IMG/VR virus record: IMGVR_UViG_2534681662_000008
Location: 1-20,812 of that record
Strand: one strand, 5' to 3'
DNA: 20,812 nt
Origin: a virus
Taxonomy: Duplodnaviria; Heunggongvirae; Uroviricota; Caudoviricetes
Shown here: piece after piece, positions 4,087-20,812 of the stretch
Position numbering within the stretch: the first letter of the stretch is position 1
How the letters are laid out: each line of letters opens with the position of its first letter
Program-made: the position numbers and the translations under genes
The notes under the pieces: model-generated
Databases searched by the model: none
The model's input: only the letters and a program-made list of their open reading frames with translations
What the model was told of the DNA's origin: nothing

Positions 4087-4112
4087 TGACCCTGGGTAAG
4101 GCAAAGGAGAAC

Positions 4113-4295: not shown

Positions 4296-4312
4296 GTGGG
4301 GCAGGGGTAAAT

Positions 4313-4447: not shown

Positions 4448-4451
4448 TGAG

Positions 4452-4634: not shown

Positions 4635-4805
4635 TCGCCTGTAAGAGCAGAATATTTTGCTGAAAAATGAAGGATGCGTCAGCGTCCGGAAAGCATGAAA
4701 TTCTGTGTTTGTGGCTACTCAATAAAATAAATTCTTTCTTTCGCCGCGAATACTCAAATGTTGATCAGTGCCCGGTGCGGTGACGGGCTTCGATATCAGG
4801 AGACG

Positions 4806-5156
4806 ATGATGGAAACAACAGAAAACAAACCGATTGTAATTGGTGCCGCTACTGTCCCGTTTAAGTTTGAGTTGTCTCAACTGGTGGAGATGCGCATCAG
4901 TGATGAATGGGGTGAGGTTAAAGCTCGCGCGCAGTATGCGGATGGCGAAAACCAGTACTTGATCCACTACAAGGCTGCTGATGGTCGCGCCACAACGGCG
5001 TGGTTTGGTGAGTCAATGCTGGGAGCAACAGAAGATGATCGCCATCCGGGCTGTCCGGTATTTGCCGGTATGAAATTACCGGAAGGTGCAGTTGAACTGC
5101 AGCCGGGGGCGGTGTTCGTAATGACAGACATCATTGATGGTAAACCGCAGTATTAG
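4806..5156 (+). CDS. Hypothetical soluble protein (116 aa), no family recognised
   Basis: ATG 4806 or 4809 with AGGAG at 4798-4802; stop TAG 5154-5156. No TM segments; acidic. Lies between the lysis region and cos. Confidence 0.5.
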   Translation: MMETTENKPIVIGAATVPFKFELSQLVEMRISDEWGEVKARAQYADGENQYLIHYKAADGRATTAWFGESMLGATEDDRHPGCPVFAGMKLPEGAVELQPGAVFVMTDIIDGKPQY

Positions 5157-5205
5157 CGTATTGAAATGAATAGTAAGAGTGCTCGCCTGATTCGTGAGTA
5201 ACAGG

Positions 5206-5244
5206 CATTACAGCAGCCCTTCACTCTAAGGGGTTGCTGTAATG
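5206..5244 (+). repeat. Long inverted repeat (hairpin with about 14-bp stem), not followed by a U-tract
   Basis: CATTACAGCAGCCC (5206-5219) pairs with GGGGTTGCTGTAATG (5230-5244): 10 perfect bp plus a G-U pair and 3 G-C pairs. Confidence 0.5.
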
Positions 5245-5597
5245 TGAGAAATAAAAAACCGGTCACAGGGAGCAGCTACACAGAAGCGGCCGGCGAAGAC
5301 CGCCAATACCACCCATGCATTGATGTAACATACTAATGACAATAGCCGCTATTGATGTAAATGCAATGTTATGCATCGACGAAAATAAAAAACCGGCAGG
5401 GGAAATCCATTGAAGATTTGCCGGTGGCAAAAGAGGGCCATGTTTTTAACCTTAGTCGCAGAGTTACGGAGTGCAACTACGAATGCTGCCGGTATATGGC
5501 TGAATGGCGTTTCAATGATGTACGTCATCTTATCTGTAAATGTTAATGACAAACGCTCTCATTTGTGCGGGTCCTTCCGGTGGGGTGGCCTGCCACG

Positions 5598-5609
5598 GGG
5601 CGGCAGCGG
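5598..5609 (+). other. cos site: cosN-like 12-mer GGGCGGCAGCGG, with a cosB-like terminase-binding region downstream (to about 5785)
   Basis: ACG-GGGCGGCAGCGG-CGCGGATTTTCGCTATTTATGAAAATTTTTCGG aligns with the phage lambda left end as I recall it (GGGCGGCGACCT-CGCGGGTTTTCGCTATTTATGAAAATTTTCCGG) and sits immediately upstream of the Nu1 gene, as in lambda. Confidence 0.6.
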
Positions 5610-5785
5610 CGCGGATTTTCGCTATTTATGAAAATTTTTCGGGAAAAAGCGTGTCGGTACTTCTCGTGTATAACTCATTGTTTTTTCATAAATCACATCC
5701 GTAAAAGGTACGACATGAAAGTGCCCGAAAAAGACGTTTTTGAGCACTTCCATGTCGGACCCTGCATTTGATATGGAAATGTTTT

Positions 5786-6334
5786 ATGAAGGTTAACAAA
5801 AAGAAGCTCGCGGAAATTTTCAACGTGGATCCACGAACGATTGAACGCTGGCAGTCTCAGGGGCTCTCTTGTGTCTCTGGTGGTAGTAAGGGGGTTGAAT
5901 CTGTATTTGATACCGCCATGGCAATTCAGTGGTATGCGCAGCGCGAAGCCGATATTGAAAACGAAAAACTCCGCAAAGAGACCGAGGATTTGCGTGCGGC
6001 TGCGGAATCATATTTACAACCCGGCACCATTGACTATGAGCGCTACCGACTCACAAAAGCACAGGCTGATGCACAGGAACTGAAAAATGCCCGCGAAGAA
6101 GGGCTGGTACTGGAAACGGAATTGTTTACCTTCATTCTGCAACGTGTGGCACAGGAGATTTCGGGGATACTTGTACGTGTGCCGCTGACATTACAGCGTA
6201 AATATCCGGATATTTCACCGTCACACCTTGATGTGGTGAAAACTGAAATCGCAAAAGCCTCCAACGTTGCAGCTAAAGCTGGTGAGAACGTAGGCGGGGG
6301 GATTGATGATTTCAGACGCACAGAAGGCAGCTAA
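5786..6334 (+). CDS. nu1: Terminase small subunit (lambda Nu1-like)
   Basis: [27 protein letters not shown]...IENEKLRKE...[23 protein letters not shown] is strongly similar to lambda Nu1. 182 aa; its 3' end overlaps the start of A. Confidence 0.9.
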
Positions 6335-8219
6335 TGCAGCCGGTGCGATAGCAACAGGGCTTGTATCTCTCAATATTCCGGTACCACTGACGACAGTTCA
6401 GTGGGCTGATCAGTATTATTATCTGCCAAAAGAGTCTTCATATACTCCCGGGCAATGGGAAACACTGCCGTTTCAGGTTGCCATCATGAACAGCATGGGG
6501 AATGACCGGATCCGCACCGTTAATCTGATTAAATCGGCGCGTGTTGGTTACACCAAAATGCTGTTGGGGGTGGAGGCTTATTTTATTGAACACAAATCCC
6601 GTAACAGCCTGCTTTTTCAGCCGACAGATTCTGCGGCAGAAGATTTTATGAAATCCCATGTCGAACCAACGATAAGAGACGTTCCTGTATTACTGGAGCT
6701 GGCTCCGTGGTTTGGCAGAAAACATCGGGACAACACGCTTACCCTGAAACGTTTCTCCTCCGGTGTGGGATTCTGGTGTCTGGGCGGAGCTGCTGCCAAA
6801 AACTACCGTGAAAAATCTGTGGATGTGGTCTGCTATGACGAACTCTCCTCGTTTGAACCGGATGTGGAAAAAGAAGGTTCACCAACCCTGCTTGGCGATA
6901 AGCGTATCGAAGGTTCGGTATGGCCTAAATCCATACGCGGCTCAACGCCCAAAATTAAAGGTTTTTGCCAGATTGAAAAAGCCGCGAATGAATCTGCGCA
7001 TTTCATGCGATTTTATGTCCCTTGCCCTCATTGTGGTGAAGCCCAGTATCTGAAGTTTGGCGATGATGCGACGCCGTTTGGCCTGAAATGGGAGAAGGGT
7101 AAACCGGAGACGGTGTATTACCTGTGTGAACATAATGGCTGTGTGATCCGGCAGTCGGAACTTGACCAGACCGACGGGCGGTGGATTTGTGACAATACCG
7201 GGATGTGGACGCGTGACGGTCTGACATTTTACAGAGCCGGTGATGAGGAAATCCCGCCGCGCTCAATCTCGTACCACATCTGGACGGCATACAGCCCGTT
7301 CACCACCTGGGTACAGATTGTTTATGACTGGCTTGATGCACTGAAGGATCCGAATGGCGTCAAGACGTTCATTAACACCACGCTGGGGGAGCCTTATGAA
7401 GAGGCTGTGGCAGAAAAACTGAGCTTTGAGTTGTTGCTGGAAAAAGTCTGCCACTATGATGCGCAGGTTCCCCTGCGGGTGGTTTACCTGACCGCAGGGA
7501 TCGACTCTCAGAAAAACCGTTATGAGATTTATGTCTGGGGGTGGGCTCCTGGCGAAGAAGCTTTTCTGATTGACAAGCAGATCATCATGGGGAGACCGGA
7601 AGATGAGGACACCCTTAAACGCGTTGATGCCGTGATCCGGAAAAAATACCGTCATGCAGATGGCACTGAAATTTCCATTTCCCGCGTCTGCTGGGATACC
7701 GGTGGTATTGACCAGGACATTGTGTATCAGCGATCCAGAAAACACGGCACTTTTTTTGTGCTCCCCATCAAAGGGGCGTCGGTGTACGGCAAGCCGGTGA
7801 TCACCATGCCAAAAAAGCGAAACCAGCGTGGGGTGTTTTTGTGTGAGGTGGGTTCCGATACCGTCAAGGAAATGCTGTATGCGCGTTTTGCCCTGCCGGT
7901 GGTATCTCCCAGTGAAGTCGCACCGTATACCTTCCGTTTTCCGGATAACCCGGACATTTTTTCTGATGTTGAAGCTAAACAACTCGTGGCAGAAGAGCTG
8001 GTTGAAAAAGTTGTGAACGGGCGGGTGAAACTCCAGTGGGATGCCAGAAAACGGCGTAATGAAGCTCTGGACTGTCTGGTGTATGCCTATGCAGCGCTGC
8101 GCATTTCCGTTCAGCGGTGGCAACTGGATCTGGATGCACTGGCCCGCGCCAGAAGAGATGAACAGGACGACGATGAAATGACTATTGAAGAAATCGCAGC
8201 TGCTCTGAGTGGAGGATAA
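6306..8219 (+). CDS. A: Terminase large subunit (lambda gpA-like)
   Basis: 637 aa. Long collinear similarity to lambda gpA ([12 protein letters not shown]...WETLPFQ...[13 protein letters not shown]...HVEPTIRD...[18 protein letters not shown]...CPHCGE...ICWDTGGID...KRRNEALDC). ATG 6306; a TTG at 6303 is an alternative start. Confidence 0.95.
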
Positions 8220-8222
8220 GGG

Positions 8223-8432
8223 ATGATTTATACGCATGAAATGCTATGCGATGCCCGCCGGGCGTTACATGAACTGATGATCGGACGTGCTGTGGTTTCC
8301 GTCAGCAAGGACGGGCGTCAGGTTCAGTATTCGCGGGCGACAATTGGTGAACTGCGTCAGTATATTGAAGAGCTGGAAAGTGCGCTGGGTGTATCCGGAC
8401 GGCGTCGTGGCCCGGCAGGAGTGGGGCTGTGA
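8223..8432 (+). CDS. W: Head-tail joining protein (lambda gpW-like)
   Basis: 69 aa. ...ARRALHELMIGRAVVSVSKDGRQVQYSRATIGELRQYIEELE...RRRGPAG matches lambda W. GGAGG at 8211-8215. Confidence 0.85.
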   Translation: MIYTHEMLCDARRALHELMIGRAVVSVSKDGRQVQYSRATIGELRQYIEELESALGVSGRRRGPAGVGL

Positions 8433-10000
8433 ACGGGGAACTGGTGGATATTCATGGGCAGCCTTTACGGCAAAGCATGGGATATTCTGGTGGTGGTTCC
8501 GGGTTCGGTGGGCAAATGGCAGAATGGCTGCCTGCACCGGAAAGTGCCGACGTGGCGCTCTTACCTTCCATTCATCTGGGTAACGCCCGCGCGGATGATC
8601 TGGTCCGTAACAACGGTATTGCATCGAATGCAGTGGAAATTCATAAGGATCATATTGTCGGGCACATGTTTCGTCTGAGTTACCGTCCCAACTGGCGCTG
8701 GCTGGGGATGTCGGAAGCAGATTCACATGCTTTTATTGAAGATGTTGAGGCGGCGTGGATGGAATACTGCGATCCGGTGTTTGGTATGATGGATGTGGAA
8801 GGGCGTCGTTCGTTTACCGAATTCATTCGTGAAGGGGTGGGGGTCCATACGTTTAACGGTGAAATTTTTGTCCAGCCCGTATGGGATGCGGAATCCACGT
8901 CATTATTCCGGACGAAATTCAAAACCATCAGCCCGAAGCGTGTCAGTACACCCGGTTATGGTACCAGCGATCGTTTTATGCGTGCCGGGGTGGAAATAAA
9001 CCGACACGGAAAAGCGCTGGCCTACCATGTTCAGGATGATGACTGGCCCGGCTACGGTGTCAGTAAATGGACACGAATTACGGCAACACTGCCTTCCGGA
9101 CGACCGGGAATGATCCATGTGTTTCAGCCACAGGAAGACGGGCAGACCCGCGGGGCCAACCAGTTTTATTCTGTAATGGAGCGTCTCAAGATGCTCGACA
9201 CACTGCAGGCCACGCAACTGCAGTCGGCGGTGGTTCGCGCCATGTATGCCGCCACGATTGAATCCACACTGGATTCGGAAAAAGCGTTTGAATATATCGC
9301 CGGGGTGGGAGATGGAGGTAAAAATCCCCTGAACACCATCATGAAAGGCTACGCGCGTTATTACGCCACCAATACGGTAAAACTGGGCGGGGTCCGTATT
9401 CCGCATCTTTACCCGGGAGATTCACTGAATCTGCAGACAGCCCAGAATGCGGATAATGGTTTTTCTGAACTGGAAAAGGCGCTGTTACGTTACATTGCTG
9501 CCGGACTGGGTGTGTCGTATGAGCAGCTTTCCCGTGATTATTCACAGGTCAGTTATTCCAGTGCCAGGGCATCCGCCAATGAGTCGTGGCGGTATTTTAT
9601 GGGAAAACGAAAATTTGTGGCCAGTCGCCTGGCGTCACAGATGTTTGCCTGCTGGCTGGAGGAAGCCCTTATTCGTGGTGTGATCCGTCCGCCGAAATCC
9701 CGTTTCTCATTCTGGGAGGCCCGTTCCGGGTGGTGCCGTGCCGAGTGGATTGGTGCCGGTCGCATGGCGATTGATGGCCTTAAGGAAGTGCAGGAAGCGG
9801 TGATGCGCATTGAAGGCGGCCTGAGTACATACGAGAAAGAGCTGGCCCTGATGGGGGATGACTATCAGGAGATTTTCCGCCAGCAGCTACGGGAAACTCA
9901 GGAGCGACAGGCTGCCGGTCTTCCGCGTCCGGTCTGGATAAAGGACGCGTTTCAACAGCAGATCCGACAGACAACGGGAGAAAAAGGCGATGCGCTGTAA
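8429..10000 (+). CDS. B: Portal protein (lambda gpB-like)
   Basis: 523 aa with collinear similarity to lambda B (...FYSVMERLKMLDTLQATQLQSAVVRAMYAATIES...LLRYIAAGLGVSYEQLSRDY...). GTG start at 8429 overlaps the W stop; GGAG lies 8 nt upstream. Confidence 0.9.
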   Translation: MNGELVDIHGQPLRQSMGYSGGGSGFGGQMAEWLPAPESADVALLPSIHLGNARADDLVRNNGIASNAVEIHKDHIVGHMFRLSYRPNWRWLGMSEADSHAFIEDVEAAWMEYCDPVFGMMDVEGRRSFTEFIREGVGVHTFNGEIFVQPVWDAESTSLFRTKFKTISPKRVSTPGYGTSDRFMRAGVEINRHGKALAYHVQDDDWPGYGVSKWTRITATLPSGRPGMIHVFQPQEDGQTRGANQFYSVMERLKMLDTLQATQLQSAVVRAMYAATIESTLDSEKAFEYIAGVGDGGKNPLNTIMKGYARYYATNTVKLGGVRIPHLYPGDSLNLQTAQNADNGFSELEKALLRYIAAGLGVSYEQLSRDYSQVSYSSARASANESWRYFMGKRKFVASRLASQMFACWLEEALIRGVIRPPKSRFSFWEARSGWCRAEWIGAGRMAIDGLKEVQEAVMRIEGGLSTYEKELALMGDDYQEIFRQQLRETQERQAAGLPRPVWIKDAFQQQIRQTTGEKGDAL

Positions 10001-11606
10001 TTTATCACATATTGCCGCGATGGCATTTAATGAGCCGCTTTTACTGGAACCCGCCTATGCGCGGGTTTTCTTTTGCGCACTGGGTAAGGAGATGGGGGCG
10101 GGCAGCCTTGCCGTTCCGCAGCAGGCCGTTCAGCTTGATGCCGATGGTATGCAGCTGGAGGTTACCGATTATATGACTGGTGGTCCGCGTCCGGTAAAGA
10201 GTTACCAGGTGAAAAATGGTATTGCCATTCTGCCGGTGAGCGGCACGCTGGTACATAAAATGGGTACCCTGCAGCCATATTCCGGTATGACCAGTTATGA
10301 CGGTCTGACTGCCCGTCTTAAGTCAGCGGTGAACGACCCGGATGTACGCGGCATTTTACTGGATATCGACAGTCCGGGCGGTCAGGCTGCCGGGGCGTTT
10401 GACTGTGCTGACATGATTTACCGTCTGCGGGAACAGAAGCCCGTGTGGGCGCTGTGTAATGACATGGCCTGTTCAGCCGCCATGTTGCTGGCGGCGGCCT
10501 GTACGCGTCGGCTGGTCACGCAGACGGCAAAAATTGGTTCGATTGGGGTGATGATGGCGCACACCAGTTACGAGAAACAACTGGCACAGGAAGGCGTGGA
10601 TATCACGCTGATTTACTCCGGGCAGCACAAGGTTGACGGCAACAGTATTCAGGCGTTGCCGACAGGTGTGCGTGCGGATTTTCAGCGCCGTATTGATGAT
10701 GCCCGCCGGATGTTTGTCGACAAGGTGGCACTTTATACGGGGCTGAGTTCAGAGGTGGTGATGAATACCGAGGCTGCCGTTTATGACGGTCAGGCAGGCA
10801 TTGATACAGGCCTGGCTGATCAACTGATTAATGCTGCAGATGCCGTTGATGTAATGGTTTCTGCTCTGAACGACTCTGTTACACAGGAGAATACGATGAC
10901 ACCAAAAAATCTCACCGTTGCTGAAGCGGTGTCCCAGGAAAATCAGCGCGTGATGGGGATCCTGAATTGTCAGGAGGCGAAAGGACGCGAAAAACTGGCG
11001 CAGATGCTGGCAGGTCAGCAGGGAATGTCAGTTGAGCAGGCAAAAACATTACTGGCAGCGGCACCGGCAACCGGCACGGCAAGTTCCGGCGATCAAATTA
11101 TTGCGTTGCCGGAAGCAAAAGGACGTGAACAACTGGCACGGACGCTGGCTGAACAGCCGGGAATGACGGTGGAGCAGGCGAAAACGTTACTGGCAGCGGC
11201 ACCGGCAACCGGCACGGCAAGTTCCGGCGATCAAATTATTGCGTTGCCGGAAGCAAAAGGACGTGAACAACTGGCACGGACGCTGGCTGAACAGCCGGGA
11301 ATGACGGTGGAGCAGGCGAAAACGTTACTGGCAGCGGCACCGGCAACCGGCACGGCAAGTTCCGGCGATCAAATTATTGCGTTGCCGGAAGCAAAAGGAC
11401 GCGAAAAACTGGCACAGGCGCTGGCTGAACAACCGGGAATGACAGTGGAGCAGGCGAAAACGCTGCTGGCAGCTGCGCCATCAGTATCGCAACCGTCACA
11501 GGTAACACTTTTTGAGCGCTTCATGGCACAGCATGCCGCCAGTGCCGTTTCCGGTGGCGGAACTGCCGGGAACGGGGAAAAAGAACTGCTGATGAGTATG
11601 CCGTAA
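9990..11606 (+). CDS. C: Head maturation protease / minor capsid protein (lambda gpC-like, S49 peptidase family) with an expanded C-terminal scaffold (Nu3-like) region
   Basis: 538 aa. N-terminus MAFNEPLLLEPAYARVFFCAL and the core ...ILPVSGTLVHKMGTLQPYSGMTSYDG...GILLDIDSPGGQAAGAFDCADMIYRLRE...TGSIGVMMAH match lambda C. The C-terminal third carries 46-aa tandem repeats. Confidence 0.9.
   Translation: MRCNLSHIAAMAFNEPLLLEPAYARVFFCALGKEMGAGSLAVPQQAVQLDADGMQLEVTDYMTGGPRPVKSYQVKNGIAILPVSGTLVHKMGTLQPYSGMTSYDGLTARLKSAVNDPDVRGILLDIDSPGGQAAGAFDCADMIYRLREQKPVWALCNDMACSAAMLLAAACTRRLVTQTAKIGSIGVMMAHTSYEKQLAQEGVDITLIYSGQHKVDGNSIQALPTGVRADFQRRIDDARRMFVDKVALYTGLSSEVVMNTEAAVYDGQAGIDTGLADQLINAADAVDVMVSALNDSVTQENTMTPKNLTVAEAVSQENQRVMGILNCQEAKGREKLAQMLAGQQGMSVEQAKTLLAAAPATGTASSGDQIIALPEAKGREQLARTLAEQPGMTVEQAKTLLAAAPATGTASSGDQIIALPEAKGREQLARTLAEQPGMTVEQAKTLLAAAPATGTASSGDQIIALPEAKGREKLAQALAEQPGMTVEQAKTLLAAAPSVSQPSQVTLFERFMAQHAASAVSGGGTAGNGEKELLMSMP
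10896..11606 (+). CDS. nu3: Candidate internal in-frame scaffolding protein (lambda Nu3-like) translated from within C
   Basis: In-frame ATG at 10896 preceded by AGGAG (10885-10889). In lambda, Nu3 is the in-frame C-terminal part of C. ...ENQRVMGILNCQEAKGRE... matches the lambda Nu3 motif ENSRIMGILNCEEAHGRE (recalled). Confidence 0.4.
   Translation: MTPKNLTVAEAVSQENQRVMGILNCQEAKGREKLAQMLAGQQGMSVEQAKTLLAAAPATGTASSGDQIIALPEAKGREQLARTLAEQPGMTVEQAKTLLAAAPATGTASSGDQIIALPEAKGREQLARTLAEQPGMTVEQAKTLLAAAPATGTASSGDQIIALPEAKGREKLAQALAEQPGMTVEQAKTLLAAAPSVSQPSQVTLFERFMAQHAASAVSGGGTAGNGEKELLMSMP
10973..11472 (+). repeat. Tandem direct repeat array, 138-bp unit, about 3.6 copies (in-frame 46-aa repeat in C/Nu3)
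   Basis: Copies at 11111-11248 and 11249-11386 are identical. The copy at 10973-11110 is diverged in its first half. A partial diverged copy starts at 11387. Protein unit: EAKGREQLARTLAEQPGMTVEQAKTLLAAAPATGTASSGDQIIALP. Confidence 0.85.
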
Positions 11607-11646
11607 GCGTGGATCCGTGATTCAGATAAATCAGGAGACTGAGAAA

Positions 11647-11982
11647 ATGATTAAAACCACCACAGAAAAGCGCGCGGACGGGCGCATTTTTGCCGGAAGC
11701 GATCCGGTATATACCGCAACAGGTACCAGTGGTATCAGTGTTGCCACGCCTTCACTGACGCCACTGATGCTGGATGACGCCAGCGGAAAACTGGTGGCAT
11801 GGGATGGTCAGAAAGCCGGAACGGCTGTGGGGGGGCTGGTACTGGCGCTGGCCGGGACCGAGCCCACACTGACGTACTACAAAAGTGGTACGTTTGCCAC
11901 CGAATCGCTGGTCTGGCCGGATTCGGTGGATGCGGTGAAAAAAGCCAACGCGTTTGTGGGAAGTGCCATCAGCCACGCCTGA
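11647..11982 (+). CDS. D: Head decoration protein (lambda gpD-like)
   Basis: 111 aa; AGGAG at 11633-11637. ...SDPVYTATG...TPLMLDDASGKLVAWDG...YYKSGTFATESLVWPD...AFVGSAIS matches lambda D. Confidence 0.85.
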   Translation: MIKTTTEKRADGRIFAGSDPVYTATGTSGISVATPSLTPLMLDDASGKLVAWDGQKAGTAVGGLVLALAGTEPTLTYYKSGTFATESLVWPDSVDAVKKANAFVGSAISHA

Positions 11983-12002
11983 TGGTGAAATGATTAACTG
12001 AA

Positions 12003-12036
12003 AAAACGGGTCGTGATGCGGCCCGTTTGTGTTTTT
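12003..12036 (+). terminator. Terminator-like hairpin between D and E (possible attenuator)
   Basis: AAACGGG (12004-12010) pairs with CCCGTTT (12022-12028), followed by a TTTGTGTTTTT tract. Confidence 0.4.
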
Positions 12037-12051
12037 AAAGGAAAGTCAATT

Positions 12052-13080
12052 ATGGGGTTATTTACCACGCGTCAGTTGCTCGGCTACACCGAGCAGAAAG
12101 TGAAATTCCGTGCGCTGTTTCTGGAGCTGTTTTTTCGTCGTACGGTCACTTTCCATACTCAGGAAGTGATGCTGGATAAAATCACTGGAAAAACACCGGT
12201 TGCGGCATATGTGTCTCCGGTTGTGTCAGGTAAGGTACTGCGCAGTCGTGGTGGTGAAACCCGCGTGTTACGCCCCGGCTATGTTAAACCAAAACACCGG
12301 CTGGATTATCAGCAGGCGGTGGAGCGTCTTCCGGGGGAAGATCCGGCCCGTCTTAATGACCCGGCCTACCGTCGCCTGCGTATTCTGACTGACAACCTGA
12401 AACAGGAAGAGCAGGCGATTGTGCAGGTGGAAGAAATGCAGGCGGTCAGCGCTGTTCTGCAGGGTAAGTACACCATGAGCGGTGAACAGTTTGAGACGGT
12501 GGAAGTGGATTTTGGACGTTCTGCCGCCAATAACATAACGCAGGCAGATGGACGCGAATGGTCAAAACAGAATGTTGACACCTTTGATCCGACGCATGAT
12601 CTGGATGCGTACTGCGATTTTGCTTCCGGTACCATCAATATTGCGATTATGGACGGTACTGTCTGGCGTATGCTGAACGGTTTTAAGCTGTTTCGTGAAA
12701 AACTGGATACCCGCCGTGGCTCAAAATCTGAACTGGAAACCGCGCTGAAAGATCTGGGTTCCGTGGTTTCTTTTAAAGGTTATTACGGTGATCTGGCCAT
12801 CATGGTGGCGAAAACAACGTATGTTGATGAAAGCGGGGATGAGCAGCGCTATCTGCCGGAAGGCACACTGATTCTTGGAAACACTCAGGTGGATGGTGTC
12901 CGTTGTTATGGCGCAATCCAGGATAACCAGGCGTTGAGTGAAGGGATCACCTCTGCAATTCGTTATCCGAAACACTGGTTAGAGGTGGGGGACCCGGGGT
13001 GCGAATATACCATGACGCAATCTGCGCCGTTGATGGTGTTGCCGGATCCGGACGCGTTTGTGGTAGTTAAGGTGAAATAA
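12052..13080 (+). CDS. E: Major capsid protein (lambda gpE-like)
   Basis: 342 aa, collinear with lambda E (...VSPVVSGKVLRSRGG...PGYVKPKH...DPAYRRLRI...EEQAIVQVEEMQAVSAVLQGKYTMSGE...LDTRRGSKSELETALKDLG...TMTQSAPLMVLPDPDAFVVV). AAGGA ribosome-binding site. Confidence 0.95.
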   Translation: MGLFTTRQLLGYTEQKVKFRALFLELFFRRTVTFHTQEVMLDKITGKTPVAAYVSPVVSGKVLRSRGGETRVLRPGYVKPKHRLDYQQAVERLPGEDPARLNDPAYRRLRILTDNLKQEEQAIVQVEEMQAVSAVLQGKYTMSGEQFETVEVDFGRSAANNITQADGREWSKQNVDTFDPTHDLDAYCDFASGTINIAIMDGTVWRMLNGFKLFREKLDTRRGSKSELETALKDLGSVVSFKGYYGDLAIMVAKTTYVDESGDEQRYLPEGTLILGNTQVDGVRCYGAIQDNQALSEGITSAIRYPKHWLEVGDPGCEYTMTQSAPLMVLPDPDAFVVVKVK

Positions 13081-13085
13081 GGTCA

Positions 13086-13110
13086 GGTGGGATATTCCCG
13101 CCTTTTTCTT
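13086..13110 (+). terminator. Terminator-like hairpin after the major capsid gene
   Basis: GGTGGG (13086-13091) pairs with CCCGCC (13097-13102) with one G-U pair, followed by TTTTTCTTT. Confidence 0.35.
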
Positions 13111-13130
13111 TATCGCACAGGAGAGATGTG

Positions 13131-13511
13131 ATGACAAAAGAAGAAATAACAGCGCGTCTTCAGGAGCTGGCGGTAGCACTCGGGCGCGATGCCGATATTT
13201 CAGGCTCTAAAGCTGATCTTGAACAACGTCTGGCGGAGGGGGAAGAAGAATTAAGTGATGGTTCAGACGGCCTGTATAAGGATGATGAAGAACCACAACA
13301 AAAAAACGAAACACGATCCGAACGTGGGGAGAGTGAGAACCGAAATTCTGTGGATATGGTCATGGTCAAAGCTGTGGTGATGTTACATGTCAATGCACTC
13401 CACGGCACACGGGATAACCCCGTGGAATTTGTACGTCCGGGAGAAGTGTTTCGTGTATCTGCTGTGGTGGCAGCCAGCATGGCAGAAAGTGGCCTCGTGA
13501 AAATGTGTTGA
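13131..13511 (+). CDS. FI: DNA packaging / head-completion protein (lambda gpFI-like)
   Basis: AGGAG at 13119-13123. MTKEEITARLQELAVALGRDADISGSKADLEQRLAEGEEEL... and the C-terminus ...LHVNALHGTRDNPVEFVRPGEVFRVSA... match lambda FI (recalled). Confidence 0.8.
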   Translation: MTKEEITARLQELAVALGRDADISGSKADLEQRLAEGEEELSDGSDGLYKDDEEPQQKNETRSERGESENRNSVDMVMVKAVVMLHVNALHGTRDNPVEFVRPGEVFRVSAVVAASMAESGLVKMC

Positions 13512-13524
13512 ATGTGGGGGAAAG

Positions 13525-13899
13525 GTGGCAGATTTCGATAATCCGTTTGATGCCGCCGTCGCCATGGCTGACGAGGTCATTCTTTGTCATATGGGGATTA
13601 CGGCGGTAATTACGTCCGGTCAGCTTGAAGGAAAAACACTCAGGGGTGTTTTTGATGATCCTGAAAAAATTTCTTTCGTTGCCGGAGGAGTACGGTTTGA
13701 AGATTCTTCACCGTCTTTGTTTGTGAAAACAGCAGATATTACGGGACTGCGCCGTCTGGATACGCTGGAGGTTGGTGGGGATCTTTTTCGGGTGGATCGC
13801 ATTACTCCGGACGACGGGGGATGCTGTTATATCCGCCTGCAACGGTGTGACACTTCCCGGGGTGATATCAGTACTGGGCGATATTATGAAAGGTCTTGA
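13525..13899 (+). CDS. FII: Head-tail connector protein (lambda gpFII-like)
   Basis: (M)ADFDNPFDAAVAMADEVI...GVFDDPEKISFV...SSPSLFVKT...DDGG matches lambda FII. Apparent GTG start at 13525; the 3' end overlaps the Z start. Confidence 0.8.
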   Translation: MADFDNPFDAAVAMADEVILCHMGITAVITSGQLEGKTLRGVFDDPEKISFVAGGVRFEDSSPSLFVKTADITGLRRLDTLEVGGDLFRVDRITPDDGGCCYIRLQRCDTSRGDISTGRYYERS

Positions 13900-14464
13900 A
13901 AACGCCATCCGTAATCTGAACAGCCTTGATACCCGTATGGTGCCACAGGCCAGCGCATGGGCGATAAACCGTGTAGCGCAGAAAGCGGTCTCGGTAGCTA
14001 CCCGGCAGGTTGCGCAGAATACCGTTGCGGGTGACAACCACGTCAAAGGGATCCCCCTGAAAACGGTGCGTCAGCGCGTCCGGGTATTGAAGGCCAGCCC
14101 GTCAGGAAAAATGTATGCCCGTATCCGGATTAACCGGGGCAACCTGCCAGCCATTAAGCTGGGGGCGGCTCAGGTCAGGCTGGCGCGGCGTGGCGGAAAG
14201 CTACGGTACCGGGGAAGTGTGCTGAAGGTGGGCAAATATCTTTTCCGGGATGCGTTTATTCAGCAACTGGCGAATGGTCGCTGGCATGTGATGCGGCGTA
14301 TTGATGGCAAAAATCGTTACCCCATTGATGTGGTGAAAATCCCGTTGTCCGGACCGCTGACGCAGGCATTTACGGAAGCCAGTCGGCATATTGCTGAAAC
14401 GGAGATGCCGAAACAACTGGGTTATGCACTGAAGCAGCAACTGAGGTTATTTCTGACACGATGA
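13886..14464 (+). CDS. Z: Tail completion protein (lambda gpZ-like)
   Basis: 192 aa. MKGLENAIRNLNSLD...GNLPAIKLGAAQVRLARRGG...GRWHVMRRIDGKNRYPIDVVKIPLSGPLTQAF...PKQLGYALKQQLRL matches lambda Z. Confidence 0.85.
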   Translation: MKGLENAIRNLNSLDTRMVPQASAWAINRVAQKAVSVATRQVAQNTVAGDNHVKGIPLKTVRQRVRVLKASPSGKMYARIRINRGNLPAIKLGAAQVRLARRGGKLRYRGSVLKVGKYLFRDAFIQQLANGRWHVMRRIDGKNRYPIDVVKIPLSGPLTQAFTEASRHIAETEMPKQLGYALKQQLRLFLTR

Positions 14465-14862
14465 ACAGACATACAAAAATCCGTCAGGCGGTACTGGCAC
14501 GTCTGTGTGAGGAGTGTGGCGAGTGCGCCACATTTTTTGACGGGCTTCCGGCCTTTATTGATGCACAGGAGTTGCCCGCTGTGGCGGTCTGGCTGAGCGA
14601 TGCCCGGTATACCGGAAAAATGACAGATGAGGACGACTGGCAGGCCGTTCTGCATATCGCTGTGTTTATCCGTGCGCAGGCACCGGATTCAGAGCTGGAT
14701 GAGTGGATGGAAAATAGCATTTATCCGGCGCTGAGGCATATACCGGCGCTTTCCGGGCTGATCGACACCATGACACCGCAGGGGTTTAACTACCAGCGCG
14801 ATGATGAGATGGCGACGTGGGCGATGGCGGAAATCACGTATCAGATCGCCTACACGAACTGA
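14461..14862 (+). CDS. U: Tail terminator protein (lambda gpU-like)
   Basis: 133 aa. ...ATFFDGLPAFIDAQELPAVAVWLSDARYTG...WQAVLHIAVFIRAQAPDSELDEWMENSIYPAL..IPALSGLI matches lambda U. The ATGA start overlaps the Z stop. Confidence 0.9.
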   Translation: MNRHTKIRQAVLARLCEECGECATFFDGLPAFIDAQELPAVAVWLSDARYTGKMTDEDDWQAVLHIAVFIRAQAPDSELDEWMENSIYPALRHIPALSGLIDTMTPQGFNYQRDDEMATWAMAEITYQIAYTN

Positions 14863-14884
14863 ATAAATAATGTAAGGAGGAGTG

Positions 14885-15655
14885 ATGTCCACACCGAATC
14901 CACTGGAGAAAACGAAAGGCGCAGGGACAACATTCTGGATGTATACCGGGATGGGAGATCCGTTTGCGTCTGCATTGTCAGACACGGACTGGCTGCGACT
15001 GGCAATGGTGAAGGATTTGCAGCCGGGCGAAATGACGGCTGATGCGGAAGACGACACGTATCTTGATGATGAGAATGCGGACTGGAAGAGCACATCTCAG
15101 GGCCAGAAAACCGCTGGCGATACGTCTGCCACACTGGCATGGCGTCCGGGCGACAGCGGACAGAAAAAACTGGTTGAGTTGTTTTATTCCGGCGAGGTTT
15201 GTGCGTTTCGCATTCTGTACCCCAACGGCACAGTTGATGTTTTTCGTGGCTGGTTGAGTTCGCTGGGCAAAGCGGTGACGTCAACGGAAGTGATGACCCG
15301 GACCATCAAAATCACCGGGATTGGGCGTCCGTACCTGGCGGAAGAGTGTCAGGAGGTGGTCAGCGTCACCGGTGTGACGGTGACACCGATGGCGGTGACA
15401 CTGCATCCTGGTGAAACGTCCAAACTGACGTTTGTGCTTGTACCGGAAAACGCCTCGGATAAAACGCTCACGGTGTTTTCCACGGATCCGCAGACAGCAA
15501 CGGTAAGCCTGAGCGGCCTTGTGGCTACGGTATCTGCCCGCCAGGAAGGGACGGTCAGTATTGTGGGTATGAGCGGTGATGGCCGTACGGGGCAGGTGGT
15601 CAAGGTGACCGTGGCCCCTGCTGAGGAGAAGAGTACCGGACGTACCCGGGGATAA
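14885..15655 (+). CDS. V: Major tail protein (lambda gpV-like) with C-terminal Ig-like (Big_2-type) domain
   Basis: AAGGAGG ribosome-binding site. ...KGAGTTFWMYTGMGDPFASALSDTDWLRLAMVKDLQPGEMTA...DTYLDDENADW...GQKTAGDTSATLAW...YPNGTVDVFRGWLSSLGKAVT... is collinear with lambda V. Confidence 0.95.
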   Translation: MSTPNPLEKTKGAGTTFWMYTGMGDPFASALSDTDWLRLAMVKDLQPGEMTADAEDDTYLDDENADWKSTSQGQKTAGDTSATLAWRPGDSGQKKLVELFYSGEVCAFRILYPNGTVDVFRGWLSSLGKAVTSTEVMTRTIKITGIGRPYLAEECQEVVSVTGVTVTPMAVTLHPGETSKLTFVLVPENASDKTLTVFSTDPQTATVSLSGLVATVSARQEGTVSIVGMSGDGRTGQVVKVTVAPAEEKSTGRTRG

Positions 15656-15675
15656 CAGGGCCATGTTTATCATCA

Positions 15676-15700
15676 GCCCCGGTTCGCCGGGGTTTTTTAT
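15676..15700 (+). terminator. Rho-independent terminator between V and G (UUCG tetraloop hairpin plus T6)
   Basis: CCCCGG (15677-15682) pairs with CCGGGG (15687-15692), loop TTCG, followed by TTTTTT (15693-15698). Confidence 0.65.
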
Positions 15701-15715
15701 TCGGGGAGAAGAGAA

Positions 15716-16105
15716 ATGTTTCTGAAACAGGATACGTTTAATTACGGCAATCAGTCGGTGGTACTGAATGAACTGTCTGGTCTGCAGCGTGTGGAATACC
15801 TGGCTTATGCCCGTGAACGCGCGGCGCAGTTTGATGAGGCTTCTGCAGGAATGGAAGAAGGGGCCCGCCAGATTGCTTTTATGGAAATGGGGATGGACAT
15901 CAACGCCTGGCTGGTTTCCCGTTCGCTGTGGAATGCCGACCAGTCTCAGAATGTGGCGGCGCTTTTTTCCTCCGTGCGCGTGACATGGTCCTGGGATGCG
16001 CTGGGGATGGCGGCGGAAAGCATTCTGGCGCTGAGCGGTATGGCACTGACAGTGGCGACAGAGGGGGATGACGTGAAGGAGGTGCTGACGCCGGAAAAGT
16101 CCTGA
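15716..16105 (+). CDS. G: Tail assembly chaperone (lambda gpG-like)
   Basis: 129 aa. MFLKQDTFNYGNQSVVLNELSGLQRVEYLAYARERAAQ matches lambda G (MFLKTESFEHNGVTVTLSELSALQRIEHLA, recalled). Confidence 0.9.
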   Translation: MFLKQDTFNYGNQSVVLNELSGLQRVEYLAYARERAAQFDEASAGMEEGARQIAFMEMGMDINAWLVSRSLWNADQSQNVAALFSSVRVTWSWDALGMAAESILALSGMALTVATEGDDVKEVLTPEKS

Positions 16106-16428
16106 CGCAGGAAATGCAGTTTGTCATGCGGCTGGCCCGGGAGTTCCGGCGGGGCGACTGGCGGCGAATGCTGTCAGAAATGTCAGCCACAGAACTGGGA
16201 GAGTGGGGGGATTATTTCCGGCGGCAGAGTTTCAGTGATGTGTGGCTGGATGCGCAATTTGCCACACTGAAAACGCTGATTGTGCAGATGGTTTCCGGAA
16301 AAACCGTGGCGGCGGATATGTTCAGCTTGTTGCCTTCAGAGACAGAAGCGCCCGTCCGGACAGATGAAGAGCTGATGTTTCTGGGGGAAGGTATCGCGGG
16401 AGGAATAAGAATTGAGCCAGATAGCTGA
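15716..16428 (+). CDS. T: Tail assembly protein G-T fusion made by programmed -1 ribosomal frameshift near the 3' end of G
   Basis: The -1 frame is open from 16072 through the G stop (16103-16105) to TGA at 16426-16428, encoding a lambda gpT-like segment. Slippery-type heptamer G-GAA-AAG at 16093-16099. Confidence 0.7.
16076..16099 (+). other. Frameshift cassette: internal SD-like AAGGAGG (16076-16082) 10 nt upstream of slippery G-GAA-AAG (16093-16099)
   Basis: Read directly from the sequence. The spacing resembles the stimulatory SD element of the E. coli dnaX -1 frameshift site. Confidence 0.45.
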
Positions 16429-19400
16429 CCTTGTTATTGATTTAAGTGTTGATACGGCTGATTTTAAGGAACAGCTTCCGCGTATTAAAGCGCAACTCAA
16501 TGGTACCGCCAGCGAAGCGGCGCGCGCAGAAGCGCGGGTCAGACAGTTTGAAGCGAGTCAGAAGCAGGCGGCGACTACCGCGGTGAAACAGACTCAGGCA
16601 CTGGCGGGGAATGCGCAGGCGCATGTTTCGTTGTCAGAGGATGTGGAACAGACCCGTCAGCGACTTGATGCCCTGAACCGGAAAATGCGTGAGGAGCAGG
16701 CGCAGGCGGCGGCACTGGCTGCTGCTCAGGATAAAGCCGCTGCTGCATTTTATCGTCAGATTGACAGTGTGAAACAGGCGGGGGCCGGACTGCAGGAGCT
16801 GCAGCGTATTCAGCAGCAGGTCCGTCAGGCCAGAAACAATGGTGGCATCGCGCAGCAGGATTATCTGGCGTTAATCTCCGAAGTGACGGCAAAAACCCGC
16901 GTGCTGGCTCAGGCTGAAGAATCCGCCACCCGCCAGAAGACGGCCTTTATCCGGCGGCTGAAGGAGCAGGTATCCGCTCAGAATCTTTCATCCACGGAGC
17001 TGCTCAGGGCAAAAGCCGCGCAGCTGGGTGTCAGTAGTGCGGCTGAGGTGTATATCAGCAAAATGGAAAAAGCCGGGAAGGTCACGCATTCGCTGGGGCT
17101 GAAAAGTGCGGCGGCCCGCCAGGAGATAGGTGTTCTGATAGGTGAAATTGCCCGGGGTAATTTCGGTGCGCTTCGTGGCTCCGGGATCACCCTGGCTAAC
17201 CGTGCCGGATGGATTGACGCGCTGATGTCCCCGAAAGGCATGGCTGTCGGCGGGGTTATCGGTGGACTCACTGCTGCTGTTGTCGGGCTGGGAAAGGCCT
17301 GGTATGACGGTCAGAAGGAGGGGGAGGTGTTTAATCGTCAGCTGGCGTTGACAGGGCATTATGCGGGCATCACTACCGGACAGCTGTGGACTCTCAGTCG
17401 CGCCATTTCCGGGAATGGTATCACGCAACATGCTGCAGCCAGTGCGCTGGCTCAGGCGGTTGGCAGCGGTGCATTTCGTGGAGGTGATATCGCCATGGTG
17501 GCGAAAGCTGCCGCGCAAATGGAAAGTTCAGTGGGGCAGTCTGTCAGCGACACCATCAGTCAGTTTAAGCGACTGAAGGATGACCCGGTAAATGCAGCCA
17601 GGACGCTGGATAATGAACTGCATTTCCTGACTGCCACCCAGCTTGAACAAATCCGTGTTCTCGGGGAACAGGGGCGTGCCAGTGATGCTGCCCGGATCGC
17701 CATGTCAGCGCTGGCAGAGGAAACCGGTAAACGCACATCTGATATTGATAATAATCTCAATGCGCTGGGCAGTACGCTGCAAACCTTATCTGACTGGTGG
17801 AAGCAGTTCTGGGATGCCGCCATGAATATCGGGCGTAATGATTCCCTTGATGCGCAGATTGCGGCGCTGCAGGAAAAAATTCAGCGTGCGAAAAAATCGC
17901 CCTGGACAAATGCATCCACCACAGTGGAATACGACCAGCAGCGCCTTGATGAACTTCAGGAGAAAAAGCGCCAGAAAGATTTACAGGATGCAAAAGAGCA
18001 GGCAGAGCGGAATTATCAGGAGCAACAGAAACGCCGTAATGCTGAAAATGCTGCACTGAACCGGATGAATGAAACGGAAGCAGCACGACATCAGCGTGAA
18101 ATTGCGCGTATTAATGCCATGCAGTACGCAGATCAGTCGGTCAGGGACGCAGCGATACAGCGTGAAAATAAACGTCACAAAAAAGCCATTAAGAAAGAAA
18201 CGCCTGCCACCCGTAATGATGAGGCCACCCGGTTATTACTGCAGTACAGCCAGCAACAGGCGCAGGTGGAGGGGCAGATCGCCGCCGCCAGACAGTCCGC
18301 GGGACTGACCACGAAAAAAATGACGGAAGCGCATAAGCAGCTTCTGGCCCTGCAGCAGCGTATCAGTGATTTAGCCGGTAAAAAGCTGACGGCAGATGAA
18401 AAAAGCGTGCTGGCGCATAAGGATGAACTGATTCAGGCGCTGACGCTGCTGGATGCAAAACAGCAGGAGCTGCAGAAGCAGACGGCGCTGAATGACCTTA
18501 AGAAAAAATCCATTCAGCTTGCCAGCCAGCTGGCGGAAGAGGAGCGGGTTCTGCGTCAGCAACATGACCTGGATATCGCCACGACAGGGATGGGGGATAA
18601 ACAGCGTCAGCGATACCAGGCACAGTTCAGTCTGCAACAAAAATATCAGCAGCAGCGGGAACAGTTGGAGCGTGACAGTAAGCGGAAAGGAACATATGGC
18701 ACAGATGAATACCGGAATGCTGAGCAGACGCTGACAGACAGTCTTAACCGGCAACTGAACGAAAACAGACGCTACTGGCAGGAGCAGGAACTGATGCAGG
18801 CAGACTGGAAAAACGGTGCCATGCGGGCGTTTCAGAATTTTACGGCAGATGCGGATAATGCGGCAGGAACTGCTGAGCAGATGTTTACAGCGGCATTTAA
18901 CAGTGCAGGTAATGCACTGGCGACGTTCTGCACGACAGGTAAACTGAATTTCAAATCCTTTACCGCCTCGCTTCTTTCCGACCTGGCAAAAATCATGGCG
19001 CAGATGGCCATTATGCAGGCGGTGAAGGGGATTGGTTCGGCGTTTGGCTGGGGGAGCGCATCCGCTGCCAGTGTGACGCCCAATGCGGATGGCGGTGTTT
19101 ATCAGTCTGCGGATTTGAGCCGTTACAGTGGCTCAGTGGTTAACCGCCCGACGTTTTTTGCCTTTGCAAAAGGCGCGGGGGTGATGGGAGAAGCGGGGCC
19201 TGAAGCCATTCTGCCACTGCGTCGTGGTGCCGACGGTAAGCTGGGTGTTGTGGCGGATATTGGTGGTTCAGGCATGGTGATGTTTGCCCCGCAGTACAAC
19301 ATCGCGATCAATAACGACGGTACGAACGGGCAGATAGGTCCGGCTGCCCTGAAGGTGGTTTATGACCTCGGGAAAAAAGCTGCAGCGGACTTTATGCAAC

Positions 19401-19444
19401 AGCAGTCCCGTGATGGCGGTCAGTTAAGCGGAGTGTATCGGTAA
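16412..19444 (+). CDS. H: Tail tape measure protein (lambda gpH-like), 1010 aa
   Basis: TTG start at 16412 with GGAGG 8 nt upstream. N-terminus ...ADLVIDLSVDTADFKEQL... and C-terminus ...IAINNDGTNGQIGPAALKVVYDL...RDGGQLSGV match lambda H. About 157 aa longer than lambda H (853 aa, recalled). Confidence 0.9.
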   Translation: MSQIADLVIDLSVDTADFKEQLPRIKAQLNGTASEAARAEARVRQFEASQKQAATTAVKQTQALAGNAQAHVSLSEDVEQTRQRLDALNRKMREEQAQAAALAAAQDKAAAAFYRQIDSVKQAGAGLQELQRIQQQVRQARNNGGIAQQDYLALISEVTAKTRVLAQAEESATRQKTAFIRRLKEQVSAQNLSSTELLRAKAAQLGVSSAAEVYISKMEKAGKVTHSLGLKSAAARQEIGVLIGEIARGNFGALRGSGITLANRAGWIDALMSPKGMAVGGVIGGLTAAVVGLGKAWYDGQKEGEVFNRQLALTGHYAGITTGQLWTLSRAISGNGITQHAAASALAQAVGSGAFRGGDIAMVAKAAAQMESSVGQSVSDTISQFKRLKDDPVNAARTLDNELHFLTATQLEQIRVLGEQGRASDAARIAMSALAEETGKRTSDIDNNLNALGSTLQTLSDWWKQFWDAAMNIGRNDSLDAQIAALQEKIQRAKKSPWTNASTTVEYDQQRLDELQEKKRQKDLQDAKEQAERNYQEQQKRRNAENAALNRMNETEAARHQREIARINAMQYADQSVRDAAIQRENKRHKKAIKKETPATRNDEATRLLLQYSQQQAQVEGQIAAARQSAGLTTKKMTEAHKQLLALQQRISDLAGKKLTADEKSVLAHKDELIQALTLLDAKQQELQKQTALNDLKKKSIQLASQLAEEERVLRQQHDLDIATTGMGDKQRQRYQAQFSLQQKYQQQREQLERDSKRKGTYGTDEYRNAEQTLTDSLNRQLNENRRYWQEQELMQADWKNGAMRAFQNFTADADNAAGTAEQMFTAAFNSAGNALATFCTTGKLNFKSFTASLLSDLAKIMAQMAIMQAVKGIGSAFGWGSASAASVTPNADGGVYQSADLSRYSGSVVNRPTFFAFAKGAGVMGEAGPEAILPLRRGADGKLGVVADIGGSGMVMFAPQYNIAINNDGTNGQIGPAALKVVYDLGKKAAADFMQQQSRDGGQLSGVYR

Positions 19445-19773
19445 TGGAGACGTTTCACTGGAAAATTCGTCCTGATATGACAGTGGCATCGGAACCGAAG
19501 GTGTTGACGGTAAAGCTGGGGGATGGCTATGAACAGCGGCGACCGGCAGGACTGAATAATTTATTGTCTGTTTACAGTGTGACTATCCGGATACGTAAAG
19601 GAGAACATCAGTCACTGGAGGATTTTCTGGCGCGGCATGGCGGTGTCAGGGCGTTTCAGTGGGTGCCGCCTTATGGCTGGAAACCAGTCAGGGTGGTTTG
19701 TCGTAAATGGTCGGCAAGCGTGGGGGCGTTGTGGGTGACCATAACGGCAGATTTTGAACAGGTCGTGGCATAG
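19444..19773 (+). CDS. M: Minor tail protein (lambda gpM-like)
   Basis: 109 aa. METFHWKIRPDMTVASEPKVLTVKLGDGYEQRRPAGLNN...YSVT...FLARHGG...FQWVPPYGW matches lambda M. Start overlaps the H stop (TAATG). Confidence 0.9.
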   Translation: METFHWKIRPDMTVASEPKVLTVKLGDGYEQRRPAGLNNLLSVYSVTIRIRKGEHQSLEDFLARHGGVRAFQWVPPYGWKPVRVVCRKWSASVGALWVTITADFEQVVA

Positions 19774-19781
19774 GAGGCCTG

Positions 19782-20473
19782 ATGCAGGATATTCACAGGA
19801 AACACATCATGAGACGACACGCCTCACTCAGTCAGCCCAGGTGGTGCTCTGGGAAATCGATCTGACAGAGGTCGGTGGTGAACGTTATTTTTTCTGTAAT
19901 GAGCAGAACGAAAAAGGTGAGCCGGTCACCTGGCAGGGGCGACAGTATCAGGCGTATCCCATTCAGGGGACGGATTTGAACTGAACGGCAAGGGCAGTGC
20001 TGCCCGTCCGACACTGACGGTTTCTAACCTGCACGGCATGGTCACCGGGATGGCGGAAGACCTGCAGAGTCTGGTCGGCGGAACGGTGGTCGGCGTAAGG
20101 TTTACGCCCGTTTTCTGGATGCGGTGAACTTCGTCAACGGAAACAGTGACGCCGACCGGAGCAGGAGGTGATCAGCCGCTGGCGCATGAGCAGTGCAGGA
20201 ACTGAGCGCGGTGAGTGCTCTTTTGTACTGTCCACGCCGACGGAAACGGACGGCGCTGTTTTTCCGGGACGTATCATGCTGGCCAACACCTGCACCTGGA
20301 CCTATCGCGGTGATGAGTGCGGTTATCACGGTCCGGCGGTCGCGGATGAATATGATCAGCCGACGTCCGATATCACGAAGGATAAATGCAGCAAATGCCT
20401 GAGCGGCTGTAAGTTTCGCAATAACGTCGGCAACTTTGGCGGCTTCCTTTCCATTAACAAACTTTCGCAGTAA
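19782..20473 (+). pseudogene. L: Minor tail protein L homologue disrupted by multiple single-base frameshifts
   Basis: ATG 19782 with AGGAGG upstream gives MQDI, then a stop after 27 codons. Lambda-L-like sequence continues in shifted frames: SQETHHETTRLTQSAQVVLWEIDLTEVGGERYFFCNEQNEKGEPVTWQGRQYQ, then FELNGKG...TLTVSNLHGMVTGMAEDLQSLVGGTVV, then RRKVYARFLDAVNFVNGNS, and finally an intact FVLSTPTETDGAVFPGRIMLANTCTWTYRGDECGY...KCLSGCKFRNNVGNFGGFLSINKLSQ. Confidence 0.75.
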
Positions 20474-20477
20474 TCCC

Positions 20478-20564
20478 ATGACAGAGACAGAATCAGCGAT
20501 TCTGGCGCACGCCCGGCGATGTGCGCCAGCGGAGTCGTGCGGCTTCGTGGTGAGAACACCGGAG
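20478..20564 (+). pseudogene. K: Tail assembly protein K homologue, 5' fragment only (about 29 codons)
   Basis: ATG 20478 directly after L. MTETESAILAHARRCAPAESCGFVVRTPE matches the lambda K N-terminus (recalled); similarity ends near 20564. Confidence 0.55.
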
Positions 20565-20812
20565 CCCGGGATGCGTCAGCTTCAAAAGAGGCGGCAAAAT
20601 CATCAGAAACGAGCGCAGCCTCGAGCGCCAGCAGCGCAGCTTCCTCGGCAACGGCGACAGCAAATTCCGCGAAGGCGGCAAAAACGTCAGAGACGAACGC
20701 CAGGTCTTCTGAAACGGCAGCGGGACAGAGCGCCTCGGCTGCGGCAGGCTCAAAAACAGCGGCTGCGTCGTCTGCCAGTGCAGCGTCAACAAGTGCCGGG
20801 CAGGCCTCAGCC
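20565..20812 (+). pseudogene. stf: Side tail fibre (Stf-like) internal fragment, Ala/Ser-rich repeat region, out of frame with the K fragment; continues beyond the window end
   Basis: Frame 2 translation ...ARDASASKEAAKSSETSAASSASSAASSATATANSAKAAKTSETNARSSETAAGQSASAAAGSKTAAASSASAASTSAGQASA is typical of the repeat region about 250-300 aa into lambdoid side tail fibres. The normal N-terminal part is absent. Confidence 0.5.

Follow-up and report, generated by a model that had tools for sequence, protein, structure and literature searches.

Near the right end of the E. coli sequence analyzed here, the first codons of the tail-tip gene K run directly into the middle of a side-tail-fiber gene, stf, with none of the genes that separate the two in phage lambda. 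The locus raises two linked questions: whether the joint is a genuine deletion, and whether the element that owns it also owns the lysis, terminase, head, and tail-shaft genes found upstream. An earlier note, made from the letters and their open reading frames, had taken the whole as one element deprived of its tail tip. The window, by which we mean the full 20,812-bp stretch under analysis, was examined here against complete genomes, phage records, and protein and metagenome collections.

Results

The window and its gene content

The window is the entire draft contig AQDT01000025.1 of E. coli assembly GCA_000355595.1 (20,812 bp), as identified by an exact match of its M protein, so that its right end at 20812 marks where the contig breaks off within stf. 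On the left it carries the 3' part of rusA, Q, an ORF6N gene, genes for tRNA-Thr and tRNA-Gly, two holins, and a GH108 endolysin, followed by the late genes Nu1, A, W, B, C (S49 peptidase), D, E, FI, FII, Z, U, V, G, T, H, M, and L. From the lambda-type tail-tip module (M, L, K, I, and J) it retains M and L, with the domains of K and the whole of I and J missing. Features of the joint and its surroundings are collected in Table 1.

Several further features of the contig were recorded. The tRNA-Thr (TGT) and tRNA-Gly (TCC) genes lie at 1834-1987, between the Q/ORF6N region and the holins; in the related TW10690 prophage the equivalent place is taken by genes for Ile, Arg, Lys, and Gly tRNAs. 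Inside the S49 peptidase/scaffold gene (gpC-Nu3), positions 10973-11473 hold a 138-bp (46-codon) tandem repeat in 3.6 copies with a 93% match, the copy number of which varies between near-identical loci: the product measures 538 aa in the window and in locus L012, and 492 aa in loci L011, L013, and L014. A cos-like region, found by eye upstream of Nu1 at about 5597-5650, reads GGGCGGCAGCGG and then CGCGGATTTTCGCTATTTATGAAAATTTTTCGG, which we take to resemble lambda cosN-cosB; its 12-nt end differs from lambda GGGCGGCGACCT at four positions. The lambda cosN sequence GGGCGGCGACCT itself is absent from the window at up to one mismatch, and matches at up to three mismatches occur at chance level.

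Table 1. Coordinates of features at and around the K-stf joint (window positions).
Feature	Position	Strand	Extent in relatives or basis
M, 109 aa (Phage_min_tail), hybrid allele	19444..19773	+	
26-bp stretch identical in A and B types, where the contig switches from A-type to B-like	19688..19713	.	site tables
L (Phage_tail_L), fragmented as deposited	19782..20473	+	
K', first 29 codons of the 247-aa tail-tip assembly protein K	20478..20564	+	parental comparison
K frame continuing into stf in the wrong frame, Arg/Gln-rich product	20478..20812	+	261 aa in complete relatives
99-aa ORF through the Ala/Ser-rich region, counterpart of lambda orf206b	20493..20792	-	
Stf-frame ORF from ATG 20519	20519..20812	+	912 aa to the natural stf stop in relatives
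Deletion joint, 2-nt AG overlap common to the K side and the stf side	20563..20564	.	13KWH46 parental sequences
'stf, side-tail-fiber codons 236 to ~318 of 1,132, Ala/Ser-rich, frame 2; cut by the contig end	20565..20812	+	

The joint is a deletion scar with a known parent

In a megablast search of positions 19400-20812, which covered 5,426 complete E. coli genomes and 50,697 phage records and returned thousands of matches to lambdoid prophages and phages, the K-like match ends at window position 20564 (query base 1165). With K starting at 20478, exactly 29 codons are left (MTETESAILAHARRCAPAESCGFVVRTPE), in agreement with the earlier reading of a K gene cut after about 29 codons. From 20565 on, the window is 100% identical over 248 bp to the middle of the stf gene (1,132 codons in E. 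coli 13KWH46) found in that strain and several others. The K frame starting at 20478 differs from the Stf frame, which is open from 20474 to the window end with an ATG at 20519, and codon 236 follows the joint; the out-of-frame union with the middle of stf and the uninterrupted frame 2 were thus both described correctly. The alignment to lambda K and stf that had been proposed as a check gives the same picture, with a left arm at lambda 13403-14219 (91% identity) and a right arm at lambda 20354-20558 (84%), the latter corresponding to residues ~236-303 of lambda stf (orf-401).

The breakpoint itself can be read by walking the undeleted sequences of 13KWH46 from both sides. On the K side the parental sequence runs through ACACCGGAG up to the breakpoint and continues with GGGGAAAG beyond it (with a longer left arm, GAGAACACCGGAG and then GGGGAAAG), and on the stf side it runs through CCACCTCAG and continues with CCCGGGATGCG (with a longer left arm, GCCACCTCAG and then CCCGGGATGCG). 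The joint reads GGAG followed by CCCGGG, give or take the 2-nt AG overlap, and the previously proposed break after GGAG agrees with this walk. A repeat search found no tandem repeat at the joint, which speaks against repeat-mediated slippage.

E. coli 13KWH46 carries the undeleted parent. Its prophage lies beside a 5'-truncated ydfJ, the Qin site, at the same location as the scarred prophages of strains 101EVA and GPEC1405 described below, with which it shares identical terminase, capsid fusion, tape-measure, M, and L proteins. In it K (247 aa) is intact and is followed by I, J, lom, an Stf of 1,132 aa, and tfaQ, and both window arms match it exactly up to the joint. The deletion measures exactly 6,173 bp and extends from K codon 30 to Stf codon 235, so that the removed segment holds everything that the earlier note had counted as gone: the remainder of K, the genes I, J, and lom, and the 5' part of stf, here its first 235 codons; as 6,173 is not a multiple of three, the K-stf fusion is out of frame. 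In K the NlpC/P60 domain (residues 111-224) is lost completely and the JAB/MPN domain (residues 3-98) nearly so, only the start of the latter being left, with the HSHP metal motif gone. I (Lambda_tail_I), J, and lom are lost entirely, I and J being absent between K' and 'stf in the window, and the N-terminal domain of Stf (PF08400, phage_tail_N, residues 1-134) is likewise missing from a remnant that begins at codon 236. With J, I, and most of K deleted, the element that owns the joint is a defective (cryptic) prophage.

From the 2-nt overlap we infer illegitimate, microhomology-level recombination: such an event in a 13KWH46-type prophage at ydfJ would have removed the 6,173 bp in question, and with them the remainder of K, the genes I, J, and lom, and the domain by which Stf attaches to the tail. 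In lambda, tail assembly starts from J and requires I, K, and L, and J, I, and K are essential for virion formation. Judged by lambda genetics, an element bearing the scar would be unable to build a tail tip and would consequently make no tails; at best it might fill heads, relying on tails or recombination from co-resident prophages.

Distribution of the joint

A 121-bp probe across the joint is matched at 121/121 positions in only two of the 5,426 complete E. coli genomes, those of 101EVA (from a human in Singapore) and GPEC1405 (from a chicken in the USA), which were sequenced independently. These matches and the exact undeleted parent in 13KWH46 bear out the proposed deletion junction, and a real deletion has left its scar at 20564/20565. 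In both genomes L is followed by K', 'stf, tfaQ, one small ORF, and then the host gene ydfJ; the stf part has the C-terminal domains Collar, Phage_fiber_2, and Gp34_trimer in these relatives with the same joint, with tfaQ following. Neither genome has I or J downstream of the joint, and the scenario that had been named as fatal to the deletion, with I and J lying farther on in a rearranged order, is therefore excluded in 101EVA and GPEC1405, where the stf remnant, tfaQ, and ydfJ follow. The prophages of both strains have a ClpP-capsid fusion head module, unlike the lambda-type C, D, and E of the window.

Elsewhere the joint is missing. An exact 30-mer across it (GTGAGAACACCGGAGCCCGGGATGCGTCAG) has no match in the GTDB species representatives and none in IMG/VR, and the joint is absent from the 50,697 phage records. 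A single 20-mer match in the JGI metagenomes proved to lie in unrelated sequence with no flanking similarity and was set aside as a chance hit. The scar is real, rare, and of single origin.

As a separate observation on these prophages, the portal gene has an internal stop in 101EVA and GPEC1405 (loci L001 and L004, 2322-3830) and is intact in 13KWH46; the stop is a further decay of the same prophage lineage.

Open reading frames across the joint

Three open reading frames cross the joint or the adjacent Ala/Ser-rich region (Table 1). RefSeq labels the frame that begins as K either "hypothetical" or "MPN domain-containing protein" in the relatives, the latter name being due to the 29 N-terminal residues of K; its Prok-JAB Pfam score of 23.3 falls below the threshold of 25 bits, no NlpC/P60 domain is present, and the ORF is best treated as junk.

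For the Stf frame, the exact 912-aa product occurs in two contigs of a 15-billion-protein collection, in which the 261-aa K-frame product and the 940-aa and 906-aa start variants of the Stf frame have no exact match. The suggestion that a truncated fiber could still be translated stands as far as the open frame and the ATG at 20519 are concerned, but direct reading reveals no Shine-Dalgarno-like motif before that ATG, and translation is possible only on paper. Since a fragment starting there lacks the N-terminal domain PF08400, it is not expected, from its domain content, to attach to tails. The intact 897 Stf codons and tfaQ could nonetheless serve incoming phages as a recombination substrate.

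The 99-aa ORF on the reverse strand is a by-product of biased composition. Reverse and wrong-frame ORFs in Ala/Ser-rich stf reach 426 aa in relatives (locus L004, 12435-13715, minus strand). In a cluster of 15,543 Stf-type proteins, several full-length members bear the NCBI names "short-chain fatty acid transporter" or "tape measure protein", which appear to be misannotations of Ala/Ser-rich fiber.

The contig changes sequence type within M

To the left of the joint the window resembles two different prophage types: we refer to the lambda-like prophage family of loci L011-L020 as A-type and to the 13KWH46/101EVA prophage as B-type. Between 6274 and 19687 the window is 99.2-99.9% identical to loci L011-L020, which encode the exact H protein, and across 19306-19687 it is A-type at 68 of 68 diagnostic sites. 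The switch to B-like sequence falls in a short stretch that is identical in both types (Table 1), and residues 1-89 of M are accordingly A-type and the last ~20 residues B-type. The A-type loci elsewhere have the full M-L-K-I-J-lom-stf set, with a J of 1,233 aa. The hybrid M protein is matched exactly only by this contig and one 573-bp metagenome contig (L006), as compared with 132 contigs for the A-type parent allele of M. As the metagenome contig combines the same hybrid M with a different 3' end of H, the A-to-B switch at 19688-19713 can be natural.

Single-base deletions in L

The claim that the tail-shaft genes look intact fails at L. As deposited, the gene is broken by seven internal single-base deletions, at about 19794, 19971, 20091, 20155, 20187, 20198, and 20217, and an eighth lies at about 19777 in the M-L spacer, with the result that gene calls split L into Phage_tail_L fragments of 47 and 101 aa. 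All eight deletions are seen against each of three independent relatives, 101EVA, C311, and TW10690, and none of them occurs in the 5,426 complete E. coli genomes, where the best L match is 98.0% identical with 801 window bases against 810 in the subject.

The distribution of these eight private 1-nt losses is peculiar. They fall within 440 bp; the 13.4 kb upstream is free of uncompensated indels, and the 330 bp after L (K'-'stf, up to the contig end) are error-free. The L region has no private substitution: of its A/B-diagnostic sites, 9 carry the A base and all the others, 49, the B base. Five of the seven intragenic deletions coincide with columns at which ten reference alleles vary (binomial P ~1e-4; 2.5e-4 when the less divergent 3' part is taken), and at the deleted bases 20091, 20187, and 20198 most A-type loci have A, T, and C where the B-type has C, C, and T; 20155 and 20217, two of the eight, are on invariant columns. 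Together, the lack of private substitutions, the overlap with polymorphic columns, and the error-free flanks point to artifacts, and the apparent frameshifts in L are very probably consensus errors produced where two L copies were collapsed and tied columns dropped. From the site pattern we conclude that the strain probably holds at least one A-type-like and at least one B-type-like copy of L, in a species in which the number of L copies per genome has a median of 2 and reaches 11.

It should be added that naturally occurring L alleles also combine these polymorphic sites in mosaic fashion; the allele of O121 strain RM8352, for instance, differs from the window at only five sites. Since natural alleles shuffle these sites, the absence of private substitutions is weaker evidence than it appears, and the A/B mosaic in L was rejected as sole proof of chimerism.

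One element or two

Because the errors in L look like the collapse of two copies and the window is a draft contig, the link between the joint and the head and shaft genes is not established. The earlier picture of an element with intact lysis, terminase, head, and shaft genes but no tail tip is therefore upheld in part: the scar does remove the tip, but its linkage to those genes is insecure and L is not intact as deposited. We lean, somewhat better than evenly and on the pattern of sites, toward a true deletion scar carried on a composite contig stitched across the M-3'/L/K-5' repeat. Reads from two prophages resident in the same strain would then have been merged in the stretch at ~19690-20564: an A-type lambda-like one supplying 1-19687 and a B-type scarred one supplying the joint, with the eight apparent deletions in and before L as consensus errors of the collapse. 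In that event the lysis, terminase, head, and shaft genes that look intact would be those of the A-type prophage, itself possibly intact. This reading is the most economical, as it calls for two ordinary prophages, the second a scarred Qin-site one resembling that of 101EVA. Counting against it are the independent hybrid M in the metagenome, the two deletions on invariant columns, and the freedom from errors of the contig's last 330 bp.

A less probable reading, to which we still give appreciable weight, keeps the same scar on a colinear contig: the strain would hold a recombinant in which A-type late genes are joined within M/L to the scarred K'-'stf-tfa end, and the frameshifts in L would still be consensus noise, contributed by a further L copy elsewhere in the genome. 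The hybrid M was seen independently in the metagenome contig, and lambdoids are given to exchanging modules at conserved stretches, loci L017 and L019 combining ClpP-type heads with A-type tails; the 26-bp island of identity is short for an erroneous jump of an assembler, and prophages at the Qin site have been described as hotspots of superintegration and recombination (PMC6379469). Against this, the colinear contig needs a third, A-type copy of L, whereas in 10 of 10 sampled loci A-type L travels with the H of the window; the combination is found in none of the 5,426 complete genomes, both genomes with the junction having B-type left flanks, and the hybrid M is hardly to be found in public data. 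That the scarred end of a dead Qin-site prophage was indeed grafted, via recombination in M/L, onto the complete late region of an unrelated lambda-like phage is rather unlikely in our estimate. Were it so, a lethal deletion would have spread between backbones, and the hybrid could still package DNA into heads while depending on co-resident tails.

We consider it very improbable that the eight deletions in and before L are real mutations and L a decaying pseudogene in an already disabled element. A prophage without J would be under no selection to keep L, and the nonsense mutation in the portal gene of 101EVA and GPEC1405 is in keeping with such decay. Eight deletions accompanied by zero private substitutions are, however, unlike the spontaneous spectrum, in which base substitutions outnumber indels; none struck the equally useless 330 bp of K'-'stf or the 13.4 kb upstream; they coincide with sites at which copies differ, at the probability given above; and none is shared with any other genome.

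Least credible is that the joint is an assembly artifact at a contig end, or else a functional K-Stf fusion gene of an unusual tail tip. It does lie 248 bp from the contig end in a repeat-rich region, and RefSeq attaches an MPN domain name to the K-frame ORF. Yet two closed genomes, whose strains differ in continent and host, have the identical joint, K and stf are joined out of frame, the 29 residues of K have no catalytic motif, the exact parental arrangement is known, and neither any of the 50,697 phage records nor any IMG/VR contig has the joint.

Discussion

The finding is one of ordinary prophage decay, a defective lambdoid prophage at the Qin site, and as such belongs to a well-known class. 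What stands out is the unusually full reconstruction of the event, with the parent, the exact breakpoints, and the 2-nt overlap all recovered. A second lesson, if the preferred reading of a composite contig is right, concerns draft data: a whole contig may look like one odd element and yet stitch together two prophages over a repeated gene, and clustered single-base deletions on sites that are polymorphic between copies are a warning sign of a collapsed repeat.

Relative to lambda (M-L-K-I-J-lom-stf-tfa), the gene order and domains match, and the ~6.1 kb between lambda positions 14219 and 20354 are absent here. The annotated lambda K (199 aa) starts at 14276, downstream of the breakpoint, and the 29 codons refer to the long, 247-aa prophage K, which in the prophage homologs is one continuous protein. 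In lambda NC_001416 (L007), 14133-14276, the first ~48 codons of the long K (ATG 14133) are in a different frame from the 199-aa K. The K of loci L013 and L016, which at first seemed truncated like the 199-aa lambda K, reflects only a difference in gene calling, the DNA encoding 247 aa.

In the strains with complete genomes the scar sits at the site of Qin (Kim), with its stfQ'-tfaQ remnant: in every complete genome that carries the junction or its parent, the prophage abuts a 5'-truncated ydfJ and ends in stf-tfaQ. Integration at ydfJ is thus seen in 101EVA, GPEC1405, and 13KWH46, the window itself ending in stf. K-12 Qin also keeps a truncated stf beside tfaQ. The junction allele differs in that it keeps the late region up to L and has lost only the 6,173 bp from K to stf. 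Qin integrates at the 5' end of ydfJ and ranges from 11 to 97 kb among strains (PMC6379469).

The Sp prophages of O157 Sakai offer a further likeness, being lambda-like and disabled in morphogenesis genes by frameshifts, deletions, and IS elements; near-identical copies among them recombine and complement one another, and the rescue of defective prophages by co-resident ones has been shown in that strain (PMC2669165). They differ from the present case in strain background, and here we have one clean deletion of tip and host-range genes, known from its sequence.

The closest counterpart of the event is found in E. coli ZY22049 (NZ_CP103329.1, locus L002, 9543-9544), where an independent K-to-stf deletion has likewise taken I, J, lom, and the 5' end of stf and left L, K', 'stf, and tfa. 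That deletion joins K codon 227 to Stf codon 158 and spans 5,345 bp relative to 13KWH46, and its scar lies in a short remnant beside a reverse-transcriptase/SLATT gene pair and prfC, not beside ydfJ. Loss of the I-J-lom block is therefore a recurrent event.
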